Origin: Candidatus Thorarchaeota archaeon
Lineage (GTDB): Archaea; Asgardarchaeota; Thorarchaeia; Thorarchaeales; Thorarchaeaceae
Direction of reading: 5' to 3'
Assembly: GCA_003345545.1 (NCBI GenBank)
Contig: PRDH01000081.1
Coordinates: 32,001-96,000, forward strand
DNA: 64,000 nt
Shown: in pieces, positions 21,498-43,937 of the stretch
Position numbering within the stretch: the first letter of the stretch is position 1
Layout: every line of letters starts with the position of its first letter
The notes under the pieces: generated by a model
The model's database searches: none
Seen by the model: the letters and a program-made list of their open reading frames with translations, nothing else
What the model was told of the DNA's origin: nothing
Position numbers and translations under genes: made by a program

Positions 21498-21649
21498 TGG
21501 TGCCGAGAATGGGATTTTCGGATCAGATGCAAACCATCTAATCCTTCGAACCCATGAACCCCTACGAGAGTGGATTTCTCCTGGGAGTCAAGCCGGCAGC
21601 TTGAACGATCTTGAGCCCACCGCCTTTAACCGGGCTTGGCTATCTCGGC
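21498..21649 (-). tRNA. tRNA-Leu(CAA) with two introns: 37/38 (21576-21609, 34 nt) and T-loop 59/60 (21515-21544, 30 nt); CCA encoded
   Basis: Acceptor GCCGAGA/TCTCGGC, long variable arm; cloverleaf is restored after removing both introns. Confidence 0.92.
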
Positions 21650-21898
21650 TTGGACTCCCAGAAATCCAATCAGTATATAGTCATTTTGGACAGACGCACA
21701 GCGATGATGGAACCATCCTTGCTAATCTGTGCAAATAAGGAAAAGGAGCGCCACTTTGGACACGATGAACCGTTCGAGAGCGAGTAATCGATTTTGATGT
21801 TATACTAATAGAGATGAGATTCACATTGAGGATGGCGAAGAAAGGACTGCCTCCAATATGACGAATAAAGAGCCCACCAACGACCGATGACTGGTTCA

Positions 21899-21944
21899 AA
21901 AATGAAGAGGGTGGCTCAAAACAAACAGCAAGGGTAAGTTCCCT
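21899..21944 (-). repeat. Short diverged copy of the 16S 3' trailer repeat, inverted relative to the 16S gene
   Basis: Reverse complement reads agggaacttacccttgctgtttgttttgagccaccctcttcatt. Confidence 0.8.
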
Positions 21945-22011
21945 GATATGATTTTTGAGAATTGGAAATCATACACTCTATGGTGCCGGTAATCGTCTGG
22001 ATGGATAGACC

Positions 22012-22437
22012 ATGAAGAGATCAGTTTTGATCATGACTGGGATATCTTTGCTTGCTACTTTGATTGCACTCACTATTGAAGTATACTATATTATTCTTCA
22101 GACTGAACCCATAGAACTCGATGTAAGGACTAGAGGGGTTACGGAAATTCTTCTCTTTCTCATAAGTGCTCCCTTATTTGCTGCAGCCTGGAATTTGAAG
22201 CAGAAGACAGACAAGACTGTAGTGCTCATTCTGATAGCGATTGGGATTCTCGGCGCCAGTGGAACTTGGGTATTTCACGATTCACTTGCAAGTATTTTCT
22301 TTCCGAAATTGTCCATAATCACATTCTTGATCATCGATTTTGCATGGTTTTGTTTTGTTGGCTTCTTTCTATGGGTTCGTCGGTTGGGCACTCCAGCCAA
22401 ACGAGAGCTAGAGAATCCCCTAAAGATAACAAACTAA
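22012..22437 (+). CDS. Hypothetical 4-TM membrane protein
   Basis: 141-aa hydrophobic ORF between two trailer repeats. Confidence 0.7.
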   Translation: MKRSVLIMTGISLLATLIALTIEVYYIILQTEPIELDVRTRGVTEILLFLISAPLFAAAWNLKQKTDKTVVLILIAIGILGASGTWVFHDSLASIFFPKLSIITFLIIDFAWFCFVGFFLWVRRLGTPAKRELENPLKITN

Positions 22438-22440
22438 CGA

Positions 22441-22532
22441 AAAAAAGGAAGGGTGGCTCAACAGCGACAAGCTAAGGGAGAGTTCGACGATTACCTGACC
22501 CCATCGAAAGCCCGCACCTCTGCCTGTCTGAA
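22441..22532 (-). repeat. Diverged copy of the 16S 3' trailer repeat, inverted relative to the 16S gene
   Basis: Reverse complement ttcagacaggcagaggtgcgggctttcgatgggg...tgtcgctgttgagccacccttcctttttt aligns to 36477-36595. Confidence 0.85.
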
Positions 22533-22612
22533 GCAAGGACAAACAAGAGGATGCGCCAGTCTGCTTTGACGTTCGGAATTACAGGTGAAGAATATCATTG
22601 CACTAGCCCAAT

Positions 22613-22696
22613 GAGAGTGGATGTCTCATCGGAGACAAGCCAGCAGCCTGAATGACCTTGAATCCACGGCCTTTAACCGGATTTGGCTACCTCGGC
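22613..22696 (-). pseudogene. 3'-truncated, diverged tRNA-Leu(CAA) copy retaining the 34-nt 37/38 intron
   Basis: Aligns to 21566-21649; lacks T arm and 3' acceptor strand. Confidence 0.85.
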
Positions 22697-22776
22697 CCAT
22701 ATAGCCAGAAATGAATTACCTGTTACTATTTCAATAGTCCTTCGACGAATATTTCTTTCATACTCGTCTTGAATTT

Positions 22777-30301: not shown

Positions 30302-30408
30302 TGGTGGACCGGGCGAGATTTGAACTCGCGGCCTTCTGAAGTGTCGGCCTGTGGCTAACACCAGCAAGCTTGCGAATCAGACGATCTACCGGTCTGATCT
30401 ACCGGCCC
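30302..30408 (-). tRNA. tRNA-Ala(CGC) with a 30-nt anticodon-loop intron (30341-30370); CCA encoded
   Basis: GGGCCGG/CCGGTCC acceptor with G3:U70, TCTGA/TCAGA anticodon stem, TTCAAAT T-loop. Confidence 0.93.
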
Positions 30409-34709: not shown

Positions 34710-34782
34710 GGCTCAACAGTGTGCAGGTATAACATGGGTAAGCTATCTCTGCTAACCCCGTTAAGCCTGTACTTCATCAAGC
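34710..34782 (+). other. 5' leader strand of the pre-16S processing stem
   Basis: Colinear complementarity to the trailer 36466-36580 in six blocks (see findings). Confidence 0.8.
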
Positions 34783-34870: not shown

Positions 34871-36432
<1,562 letters not shown>

Positions 36433-36600
36433 AAGTTTTCACCATCTTCAAGATGGTGAAGATTAGCTTGCCTGTCTTCGGACAGGTAGAGGTACAGGCC
36501 TTCGACGGGGAACGCGGTGCAATCGTAAGGTTGCCCCGACGCCAAAGTGGAGAACTTGCTCTTGCTGTCGCTGTTGAGCCACCCTTTTCCTTTTTCATTC
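36433..36600 (+). repeat. Native 16S 3' trailer (hairpins, processing-stem strand, T-tract); prototype of the array repeat
   Basis: Directly follows the 16S gene; ends ctgttgagccaccc-ttttccttttt. Confidence 0.9.
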
Positions 36601-38674: not shown

Positions 38675-38858
38675 AATAGTGGCATTTGCTTCTCTATCTA
38701 CTACCTCGGTGGAAACCCTCTCTTGACACGTTTTAGCATGAATCGCATATTGGTTGAGAGTAGTTAATATTGACCGTTTCAGACAACTACATAGAGAGTT
38801 GATTCACAATCCCATAGATGAAAGAGTTTAATTCATAACCTTCGGATGGTAGTACATA

Positions 38859-41152: not shown

Positions 41153-41250
41153 GCTTTCAAGGCAAAATGCAGTGCAATCTTCAGGTTGCCCCGACGCCAA
41201 GGTGGGGAACTTGCCCCTGCTGTTCGCTGTTGAGCCACCCTTTTCTTTTT
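41153..41250 (+). repeat. Trailer repeat copy 4
   Basis: gcagtgcaatcttcaggttgccccgacgcc...gctgttgagccacccttttcttttt. Confidence 0.93.
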
Positions 41251-41409
41251 ACAATATCTTTCAGAATGAGTTGAGTCTATTTTCTATCATGAGATCATTG
41301 TGATATTGAGATGTCCGTTAGAATTCTCTTCACATCATCTATTGTCAACAATCTGAAATGGACCATTATTGATGGTGTTTTTTTGAGCATCTCTATTGAT
41401 TCAATCGAA

Positions 41410-41847
41410 TTAGATATTGGTCGGGTCAAGTCTTGTTAGACCTTCTATTCTATCATAGATACGATCTGTTGAAGCAATAGTATGATCCGGATTGTCATTA
41501 CTGAGTGAAACTGCTGCATAAATCGCATCAAAGATGGAACCCAATCTATAATTCTCCAAGAGATATAGCGCTGCTAGTTGATGATCAATTGTAGAAGGGA
41601 CAACTGAGATATTTGGGAACGTAACAACGTGACTTATGATATCACGAACTGAGGACACACCAGTGAGGTTTCTCAAGACATAGTAAAGTTCTATGGAGAA
41701 GATACTTGGAACAAGGACACTCCCGAACTTACCTTCTTCAATACTTGAGAAAAGTCGAGTCGCATGCGTTTTTAGATTGTCATTCTTCTTATAGAACGCC
41801 AAGATCATATCGTTCTCGATTAGCATTCCGTTTCTTTCCGCCTCCAT
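41410..41847 (-). CDS. PIN-domain (VapC-like) toxin (start probably ~41826)
   Basis: LIENDMI...IEL...FDAIYAA...STDRIYD. Confidence 0.88.
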   Translation of the reverse strand: MEAERNGMLIENDMILAFYKKNDNLKTHATRLFSSIEEGKFGSVLVPSIFSIELYYVLRNLTGVSSVRDIISHVVTFPNISVVPSTIDHQLAALYLLENYRLGSIFDAIYAAVSLSNDNPDHTIASTDRIYDRIEGLTRLDPTNI

Positions 41848-42068
41848 CGTTTGGATACATCCTTCGCAATCTCTGCATCTGCTTTGGCAAGGAGGTCCGC
41901 AATTGGTCCCTCAATATCCAATTCTGGTTTATCAGAGGGGATAGGAAAGAGGATATGATAAGATCCAATGGTAAGGAGAAGAAAAGTATCTCCTTCGAGT
42001 CCTGCCTTTCTTGGGATTCTGATGCGTCTTTGATCATCCATTCGAACTCTTACCATCAAGATGAACAC
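41820..42068 (-). CDS. AbrB/MazE-like antitoxin
   Basis: VRMDDQRRIRIP motif; overlaps the PIN gene. Confidence 0.8.
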   Translation of the reverse strand: MFILMVRVRMDDQRRIRIPRKAGLEGDTFLLLTIGSYHILFPIPSDKPELDIEGPIADLLAKADAEIAKDVSKRWRRKETEC

Positions 42069-42202
42069 CTCGTATGATTGTAAGACAAATATGATTTAAA
42101 GATATGGATGAAATTCACACTTTATGGATGAAATATGTATATATTGACCTATTTCTATCAGGCTACAATATTCGGCGACATCTCATTCGATTGATTCAGG
42201 GA

Positions 42203-42431
42203 GTATCCGACGCGGAAGCTGCGGATGGAAGAAGTTGAGATTTCCTCATCTTCCATCACTCACCTCCTATTTTTTCTACTTCATAGAGGTAGAAGCAGCT
42301 TGGCTCGCAGTCCTTCGGGGCTGTGGGAGAAGTACGGGCCTTCGACAGCGGGGAACGCGGTGCAATCGTCAGGTTGCCCCGACGCCAAAGTGGGGAACTT
42401 GCTCTTGCTGCGGCTGTTGAGCCACCCTTTT
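42203..42431 (+). repeat. Trailer repeat copy 5, including an orphan 16S 3' end (helix 45 and anti-SD, 42203-42268) interrupted by a 30-nt BHB intron (42230-42259)
   Basis: gtatccgacgcggaagctgcggatgga[30 nt]tcacctcct, then a complete diverged trailer. Confidence 0.93.
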
Positions 42432-42532
42432 CGTTGTCTATCGTCAATTTCGGATGAGTGTAAGTCAGGTTTATCTTCTCTCTCGTTTGCTTTCAGGTTT
42501 AAATATGTGACTTGACCAAGTGGGAATAATCA

Positions 42533-43300
42533 GTGAAAGTCAAATGTTTTGATTGTGATGAAGTGATTGAAGCGGACAGCCTTGAAATGCTAGCAGATGT
42601 TTTTGTGACACATGGTATAAGGATCCATTCTTGGGAGTATCCCGAAGAGGCGATAAGAAATTACGCCTGCAATTACGCAGAAGCAGTAGAGCGACTCACA
42701 GGTGATACAGCAAGAAAAGAGGAAATTGGCGAAATCACGATACATCCAGTCACAAAGGACTCCATAGATGATTGGTTACATTTTTTCGATCATGATGGTT
42801 TCGCCGATAATCCTGGGTGGGCATCCTGCTACTGCCTCCAACCACATTTACCTACGACAGATGAGAACCTAGATCGTCCATGGCGTGAATCACGATCAAT
42901 CATGGTCAAACGCCTCTTAAAGGGAGAAACATTTGGGTACTTAGCGTATGTTGATAACAAACCAGTGGGATGGGTAAACGCTTCTTTGTGCAGTGAGTAT
43001 AAGCTTCTTCAACAAAGCGATCCGAATGGTCCTGAGTCAGCATCAATAATTGGTATCTCGTGTTTCGTGGTTGCTCCGCCCTATAGAAGACATGGAATTG
43101 CGTCAGCCTTACTCGATCGTGTTATTGCGGACGCTGCCTCCCGTGGTGCATTGTGGATTGAGGGCTACCCTCGCAATAAGCCCGAGAGTAAAGATGACGC
43201 GCACTTTCGAGGACCTAGTAGTATGTACACTAATCGTGGATTCCAACCAGTTGTTGTTCGAGGACGTGATACTGTAATGCGTTTGCAGGTACACTATTGA
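42533..43300 (+). CDS. GNAT-family acetyltransferase
   Basis: CYC...ISCFVVAPPYRRHGIA...IEGYP. Confidence 0.9.
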   Translation: MKVKCFDCDEVIEADSLEMLADVFVTHGIRIHSWEYPEEAIRNYACNYAEAVERLTGDTARKEEIGEITIHPVTKDSIDDWLHFFDHDGFADNPGWASCYCLQPHLPTTDENLDRPWRESRSIMVKRLLKGETFGYLAYVDNKPVGWVNASLCSEYKLLQQSDPNGPESASIIGISCFVVAPPYRRHGIASALLDRVIADAASRGALWIEGYPRNKPESKDDAHFRGPSSMYTNRGFQPVVVRGRDTVMRLQVHY

Positions 43301-43344
43301 CTTCCCTTCAATGAAATTATAAGTAATCATCAACATTATGATTT

Positions 43345-43542
43345 ATGATAGATATGGGCGAGACCACTACGATTCCACTGACTAAAGAGACACGTGATCT
43401 CCTGAAGAAACATGGTCAGAAGGGAGAGACCTACGACGAACTAATTCGTCGTCTTCTTCAGATAGCCGAACAAGTGGAGTTTGCCAGAAGACAGAAACGA
43501 ATTCTCGAGGAAGAGGAGTTCGTTCCACTTGACCAAGTATAG
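43345..43542 (+). CDS. Putative antitoxin (archaeal RHH-like)
   Basis: TTIPLTKETRDLLKK...GETYDELIRRL; overlaps relE. Confidence 0.8.
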   Translation: MIDMGETTTIPLTKETRDLLKKHGQKGETYDELIRRLLQIAEQVEFARRQKRILEEEEFVPLDQV

Positions 43543-43810
43543 GGTCTTGCTGTCCAGAACAGCAGTTGCGCAGTTAGACTTACTGAACCCCAAACAGAAG
43601 AATCGGGTCAAATCGAGTCTAGAACAGTTGGAAGACGACCCGTTTCGAAGACGTTCTGGCGCGGACATCAAGAGACCTCTCACTCATGGCGAACTACCTC
43701 TCTACCGATTACGCATAGGTGACCATCGCGCCATTTACTTCGTGATAGAACATGAAGTCAGAGCCACTGAAATAATCCATAGAAGTAGAGGATACAAATG
43801 GTTGGAGTAG
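43529..43810 (+). CDS. relE: RelE/ParE-family toxin
   Basis: YRLRIGDHRAIY...IIHRSRGY; TTG start inferred. Confidence 0.88.
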   Translation: MTKYRVLLSRTAVAQLDLLNPKQKNRVKSSLEQLEDDPFRRRSGADIKRPLTHGELPLYRLRIGDHRAIYFVIEHEVRATEIIHRSRGYKWLE

Positions 43811-43830
43811 CTCACCTCAGATAGAGTTTC

Positions 43831-43937
43831 GAAGTAGAGGGGGCGGCGAACGCGGTGCAATCGTAAGGTTGCCTCGACGCCAAAGTGGAGAACTTGCTCT
43901 TGCTGTTCGCTGTTGAGCCACCCTTTCATTTTTCATT
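43831..43937 (+). repeat. Trailer repeat copy 6
   Basis: gaacgcggtgcaatcgtaaggttgcc...gctgttgagccaccctttc. Confidence 0.95.

Follow-up and report, generated by a model that had tools for sequence, protein, structure and literature searches.

The detached 16S rRNA 3' end that lies within an accessory-gene array of a Thorarchaeota genome (G000; 82 contigs, 2.69 Mb, 93% complete) is a non-functional relic, and it is best explained as a duplicate of the last 36 nt of the 16S gene, together with a mini-intron, the proximal trailer and a processing-stem arm, which would serve as the boundary unit of one cassette in an array anchored behind the single 16S gene and would move by recombination with the 16S end. 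We put the probability of this explanation as a whole at about 0.55. It builds on points that the analysis shows, namely which parts the orphan comprises, that it is a relic, that intact genes carry the same end, where the boundaries lie, that cassettes are shared between genomes and that modules at the resident gene were replaced. All positions below are those of the window, that is, the whole stretch of 64 kb that was analysed, and all comparisons with relatives use metagenome-assembled genomes (MAGs). The features concerned are as follows.

34871-36432, plus strand: resident 16S rRNA gene (Rfam SSU_rRNA_archaea, 1246 bits).
36433-36597, plus strand: resident trailer, with "type I" proximal hairpins, the 3' strand of the pre-16S processing stem and a T-tract.
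41410-42068, minus strand: PIN-toxin cassette of two overlapping ORFs, directly 5' of the orphan end (PF01850; 94-96% identity to G010:C184).
42170-42202, plus strand: left junction, where the end of the PIN cassette is joined to the orphan end (same junction in G010:C184; spanned by a 1162-nt Logan contig).
42203-42229, plus strand: helix 45 of the orphan end, with a change of TA to AC at 42210-42211 that disrupts two stem pairs.
42230-42259, plus strand: bulge-helix-bulge (BHB) mini-intron at "site 3", 30 nt, inserted between GGATGGA and TCACCTCCT.
42260-42268, plus strand: 3' tail of the orphan end with the anti-Shine-Dalgarno sequence, TCACCTCCT (sequence reading and pattern scan).
42269-42330, plus strand: "type II" proximal trailer, with hairpins at 42275-42295 and 42305-42328.
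42328-42433, plus strand: copy of the processing-stem arm, which is the array repeat, with a T-tract (90% identity to the resident 36485-36592).
42533-43300, plus strand: GNAT acetyltransferase cassette, directly 3' of the orphan end (PF00583).

A reading made from the sequence alone (hereafter, the sequence-only reading) had described 42203-42268 as 16S helix 45 and the anti-Shine-Dalgarno tail split by a 30-nt insert, and the sequence agrees: a pattern of the helix-45 3' strand, a gap of 0-30 and the anti-Shine-Dalgarno sequence occurs exactly twice in the window, at 36408-36432 in the resident gene and at 42214-42268 in the orphan, versus 0 occurrences in 100 shuffles. The orphan, whose helix 45 we take by our own numbering to correspond to about 1506-1531 of E. 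coli, retains 36 gene bases, lies 5.8 kb from the real 16S gene and is flanked by two accessory-gene cassettes. It is not full length and two pairs of its helix 45 are broken; a search of 42120-42330 gave no Rfam SSU rRNA match even at E 10, and no Rfam family matched either the array repeat or the orphan. The tail is followed by a trailer whose sequence type is not that of the resident, with both hairpins at matching positions and in another sequence, just as had been noted from the letters, and then by the copy of the stem arm. Two further candidates were set aside: a second match in G000, on contig C9, falls in a region without any Rfam match and was judged a chance similarity in coding sequence, and an upstream TCGATT, shared with the 3' end of the resident "site 2" intron, was too weak to claim that the orphan reaches into that intron.

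The array to which the orphan belongs lies behind the 16S gene. Cofolding of the leader (34710-34775) with the resident trailer gave 56 intermolecular pairs, with the trailer partner at 36489-36580, and the repeat of the array, 65-105 nt long, is this 3' strand of the pre-16S processing stem. Twelve copies, all on the same strand, occur between 36.5 and 50.2 kb; the orphan is the sixth of them, in line with the mid-array position proposed for it, and the only one that extends into the gene, a search having found no significant 16S-end remnant at the other eleven units. The cargo between the repeats lies in both orientations and comprises a YCF48-like gene, HicA, two PIN genes, two GNAT genes, ParE, an LVIVD-repeat gene, UPF0175, DUF3368, a gene with a pyruvate-kinase C-terminal domain (PK_C) and a Na/Ca exchanger. 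Pre-16S leader-trailer helices are cut by the splicing endonuclease. Like the archaeal pre-16S processing stem, the distal 105 nt of the orphan unit are a stem 3' strand that still pairs with the leader of the same genome (59 pairs, which is full pairing); unlike it, only the first copy can serve rRNA maturation, and the orphan lies behind four cassettes. A second, small set of the repeat was observed on the minus strand at 21560-22712, about 13 kb 5' of the 16S gene, with two stem-arm copies (21892-21943, 22449-22502) and a pair of 106-nt direct repeats (at 21560 and 22607; 78% identity), interspersed with small ORFs that have no Pfam match.

The 30-nt insert had been read as a BHB intron with a GATG/CATC helix and bulges GA^A and AC^T, and this geometry holds: the central helix of 4 bp is formed by GATG (42224-42227) with CATC (42254-42257), and the two 3-nt bulges lie on opposite strands, while the inner stem of 9 positions contains one U-U mismatch and closes on a loop of 5 nt. 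Removal of the insert by cuts past the second base of each bulge yields exactly the resident sequence (36414-36432), and the resident gene is uninterrupted at this site, as had been claimed. The strict BHB form is not reached, and the motif is to be regarded as relaxed because the outer exon helix is only 1 bp, with one G-C pair possible. The layout of the insert (1 nt, a 23-nt hairpin, 4 nt pairing with the exon, 2 nt) is identical in both resident 16S mini-introns and in a tRNA-Ala intron of the same window, a canonical 37/38 intron of the same BHB topology. Across 40 intron copies 93.4% of cells were paired, versus 32-59% in slid controls, and six of the nine inner-stem pairs show compensatory change; G031 has a wholly different stem sequence in which the pairing is retained. 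In addition, no fewer than 11 other Thorarchaeota loci with an intact 16S gene have the intron at the same position, which by our own numbering is presumably about 1531/1532, just 3' of helix 45. Comparison of the copies thus assigned the insert to a real intron family and makes it a predicted substrate of the tRNA-splicing endonuclease EndA, the enzyme that excises archaeal BHB introns. Heteromeric EndA accepts relaxed BHB motifs, and the two EndA paralogues of G000 (C12:16964-17212 and C16:41472-41729) would fit a heteromeric enzyme that cuts the relaxed motif. Short hairpin introns of this kind are known from archaeal 16S genes, for which Jay and Inskeep (2015; PMC4496867) catalogued 13 intron loci, from position 374 to 1391, all of them in Thermoproteales and their neighbours. 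The site-3 intron resembles these in being shorter than 50 nt, in its hairpin with BHB at the exon junctions, in having no homing endonuclease gene and in its variable presence among relatives, but it differs in its Asgard host, in a site beyond 1391 and in being copied on a detached gene end. The tRNA-Ala gene with its 30-nt intron (30305-30408, minus strand) was detected by Rfam and missed by ARAGORN.

The resident gene carries two mini-introns of its own, each of ~30 nt, near its 3' end at about 36232-36262 and 36359-36388. The alleles at these sites 1 and 2 (36223-36398; compared at loci L021, L026, L037 and L054) form a mosaic across species: at site 1 the resident gene has almost the same intron as G029, a member of another genus, at site 2 almost the same intron as L054, where the neighbouring peptidase has 68% identity, and the sister G001 has unrelated sequence at both sites.

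The relic state of the orphan is evident from comparison with intact genes. Over 11 intact intron-bearing genes none of 396 positions differs, and the intronless intact genes have the same reading of helix 45. In 29 orphans of relatives, the 5' strand of helix 45 differs at 82 of 319 positions (0 of 121 in the intact genes), the rest of helix 45 at 18 of 464 (0 of 176) and the tail at 4 of 261 (0 of 99). The two changes of the present orphan, at 42210-42211, fall in a stretch that is invariant across the intact genes examined. The sequence-only reading had also placed crossovers inside the 16S gene, and the left boundaries bear this out: all 29 orphans begin in helix 45 or at most ~7 nt 5' of it, at AACAAG, and none extends further 5'. 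The leftmost reach, TAACAAG, lies no more than 2 nt from the splice junction of the resident site 2 intron.

The same end, intron and type II trailer together, is carried on intact 16S genes by G001, G003, G014, G015, G029 and six more loci, so that organisms with this combination on an intact gene, which had been named as a check, do exist among the relatives. Pattern scans of 87 genomes of the class, one with a short gap for intronless ends and one with a longer gap for intron-bearing ends, found intron-bearing copies in 22 genomes, several of them with two to four, and intronless copies in 27. The proximal part of the orphan has 92% identity to the resident end of G003, 90% to that of G029, 86% to that of G001 and 60% to the resident of its own genome, whereas the resident type I proximal trailer best matches G078 of another genus (86%), G027 (83%) and genus g4 (79-82%); the short 16S-end contigs of G001, G003 and G014 in these comparisons rest on binning and could be mis-binned. 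In a tree of the peptidase gene that adjoins 16S, G000 is sister to G001 with 100% support and 92% protein identity (G029, which has no peptidase beside its 16S, was left off the tree). G000 is type I and intronless, G001 is type II, and the deeper branches of the clade, G014, G015 and G003, are type II as well. The intron state requires at least six changes on this 19-taxon tree, which, with the difference between G000 and its sister, substantiates the proposed exchange of 16S 3' ends among relatives. The resident tail of G000 has thus been replaced by an intronless type I module, and type I is not a simple intron loss because both proximal hairpins differ. At the same time, G000, G001 and G027 differ in their proximal modules yet have a homologous resident stem arm, followed by ~110 nt of homologous flank. 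The assortment of proximal modules is therefore independent of that of distal ones, against a background that stays constant, which argues for patch-wise recombination rather than one clean displacement.

These distributions bear directly on the history that the sequence-only reading had proposed, in which the orphan is the former 16S end of this very lineage, pushed 5.8 kb downstream by one or more elements that brought an intronless end and integrated by crossover in helix 45, and decayed in place. The sister and the deeper branches within the genus do carry type II, the stem arm of the orphan pairs fully with its own leader, two other congeners, G017 with an intronless resident 16S and G027 with an intronless, type-I-like 16S end, also have intron-bearing orphans, and no intronless orphan was found by exact pattern in genomes with a type II resident end. 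However, an integrating element should bring its own flank, whereas in G000 the resident stem arm and the following ~110 nt show synteny with the resident flank of the sister; the proximal part of the orphan is nearer to the resident of G003 than to that of the sister; and the junction of PIN cassette and orphan is common to G010 at an identity far above that of the core genes. What stands of the proposed fossil is that the orphan is the relic of a different end allele, one found on intact genes of relatives; the syntenic flank and the common junction speak against its being the displaced end of its own gene, and we regard a straightforward displacement as rather unlikely.

The comparison with G010 also indicates how the orphan travels. 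Positions 41390-42342 match contig C184 of the congener G010, whose placement likewise rests on binning and could be wrong, with 92% identity, although the core genes beside the array have only 68-70% identity to G010 (83-86% to G001), and the PIN cassette, together with the left part of the orphan, was therefore shared between the species long after they split. Identity along this match is 94-96% in the PIN cargo, 89% at the intergenic end, about 81% over the junction and helix 45, 83% in the intron, 93% over the tail and the first hairpin and 57% in the second hairpin, and the stem arm is of an unrelated form, which places a recombination breakpoint within the unit near 42300; helix 45 of G010 shows decay of its own, differing from that of the orphan. 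Since G010 shares the PIN junction far above core identity, the orphan moves as part of a cassette unit. On the other side, orphan and GNAT gene are colinear in G003:C139 (81% over 42212-43300), and 42327-43935 match G001:C17 with 95% identity. Breakpoints between genomes thus fall within the unit at about 42212, 42300, 42327 and 42342. Other cassettes recur in G001, G003, G010, G029 and further genomes, reordered and at times with no unit between them. The PIN cassette and the orphan may have passed in either direction, and the orphan could still be native to G000. At 38690/38691 and 43300/43308, cargo modules that are separated by a unit in G001 are directly joined in G000; loss of units with fusion of cassettes is therefore possible.

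Could the junction have been made by the assembler, by joining the type II 16S end of a co-occurring strain into the contig? Run X1 does hold another type II variant, on a 525-nt contig over 42203-42302 with 8 differences and a different second hairpin, so that related Thorarchaeota strains must co-occur in the wetland metagenome, and unitigs do break in the repeat core. Yet positions 41216-42377 are covered without any difference by one 1162-nt Logan contig in each of runs X1 and X5, which belong to two studies (2018 and 2022) and may include the source samples of the assembly; this contig connects the previous repeat, by way of the PIN cassette and the left junction, with the stem arm of the orphan. 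The same junction is found in G010 and the same order of orphan and GNAT gene in G003. With the left junction spanned in independent per-run contigs of two studies, the misassembly that had been named as a way to refute the finding is highly improbable. The second such way, another intact 16S gene with this end elsewhere in the genome, is likewise countered: the 82-contig assembly of G000 holds a single 16S gene, and the search found no second one. The per-run contigs break in the repeated core of ~30-60 nt, at about 42350-42410, and none bridges to the GNAT cassette, for which the link is supported by the MAG assembly, the colinear order in G003 and the match to G001:C17. Joints in which contigs appeared to skip ahead or go back were rejected as signs of deletions or circles, as the contigs hold several repeat copies, and no circular or excised form of a cassette was seen in the data.

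We infer the recombination route and the enzyme from these patterns. In the explanation that we prefer, the units would be attachment-site-like repeats derived from the 16S end, one at the 3' side of each cassette. A cassette-borne unit would recombine with the resident 16S end, or any two units with each other, with the result that cassettes move and hybrid units arise. Crossovers may fall anywhere between helix 45 and the stem arm, and one in helix 45 would replace the last bases of the gene, its intron state and its trailer. The present orphan would have kept the intron-bearing type II module typical of the genus, and would have arrived, or been exchanged between species, with the PIN cassette. 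In the favoured route the partners recombine in the unit that they have in common, either through a single crossover with an excised, circular cassette or through exchange from one array to another. A homologous process is the most likely, given that searches found no dedicated recombinase: no match to the tyrosine recombinases (PF00589, Phage_integrase) exists in G000, G001 or G035 (93-97% complete), so that not even a Xer-type recombinase was detected in these three; in G000 neither a Y1 transposase nor a reverse transcriptase was found, and the search for resolvases gave nothing above the Pfam cut-off and one weak match below it, on contig C15; and no recombinase or integrase was found among the array genes scanned. 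TnpB-like genes lie on other contigs, outside the window. The scattered breakpoints, the assortment of modules and the decay of identity towards the repeat edge would fit homologous recombination or gene conversion between units.

A dedicated but unrecognised site-specific system, integron-like with an unfamiliar or RNA-guided enzyme and with the unit as its recognition site, would account better for some of these features. In roughly 30 orphans from many genomes the left boundary varies by no more than about 15 nt, and a boundary this sharp in about 30 independent orphans looks more like site-specific than homologous recombination; all units have a single orientation; the orphans are 96-98% conserved from the helix-45 loop to the tail although the pairing partner in helix 45 has decayed; and their leftmost reach nearly coincides with the site 2 splice junction. 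Against such a system stand the breakpoints at several places in the unit, the independent assortment of proximal and distal modules, the cargo genes in both orientations and the failure to find a tyrosine, serine or Y1 recombinase or a reverse transcriptase, and we consider it quite improbable. Because the leftmost boundary coincides with the splice junction of the neighbouring intron, the units might originate from RNA pieces cut by the endonuclease. Returning to the recombining boundary unit, we tentatively extend it, with less confidence than we have in the explanation itself, to an integrase-independent cassette platform that may be anchored on the rRNA gene across Thorarchaeia: its cassettes would carry the last 36 bases of 16S, the intron and the trailer, and their insertion could overwrite the real 3' end, keep rewriting this marker gene and spread or remove mini-introns.

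Two known arrangements are close to this array. Like the integrative elements at tRNA and tmRNA 3' ends, it has accessory DNA bounded by a direct repeat of the 3' part of a stable-RNA gene, and the gene stays intact through a replacement end, the displaced ends accumulating in the array. Unlike them, the target is the 16S gene with its processing-stem trailer, the units measure 65-230 nt, the cassettes of 0.3-2 kb have no integrase of their own, and the duplicated end has an intron that is absent from the resident. Chromosomal integrons and integrase-less cassette arrays (CALINs) have been described in Archaea (Ghaly et al. 2022; PMC9668308). As in these, the cassettes of the array are small, have many toxin-antitoxin and GNAT genes among their cargo, are each bordered on one side by a structured repeat and recur in several genomes in changed order. 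In contrast to them, no IntI-type tyrosine recombinase was found at or near the array, the repeat is a copy of the host's own rRNA end, cargo genes point either way, and the unit does not form an imperfect palindrome of the attC type: it ends in a GTTGAGC-like motif, and no complementary inverse core was seen in the alignment. No description of 16S-anchored cassette arrays was found in the literature searched. What this locus adds is boundaries inside the gene, orphans that keep an intron, sisters that differ in their resident end and the co-transfer of an orphan with a cassette.

Among vertical markers, the 16S gene is treated as the most stable. Its tail is nevertheless reshuffled with cassettes here, because sister species carry the version of the orphan on a working 16S gene. 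The last bases, the intron and the trailer are exchanged between species alongside accessory genes, and the mature rRNA is unchanged. Such reshuffling provides a concrete route for the gain and loss of rRNA mini-introns and could be a means of gene exchange in Asgard archaea without a recognisable integrase. In addition, amplicon surveys and MAG assembly of Thorarchaeota are probably affected by mini-introns near the 3' end, one of which by our own numbering presumably falls within the 1492R primer site; many of the contigs examined break at or in the 16S gene. In the sister genome, contig C30 of G001 (L022) holds two copies of a YCF48-like cassette, at 8815-7250 and 13296-12012, one of which is preceded by a full orphan 16S end and by the ~110-nt flank that also comes after the resident trailer, an arrangement that looks like a displaced "resident unit plus first cassette".
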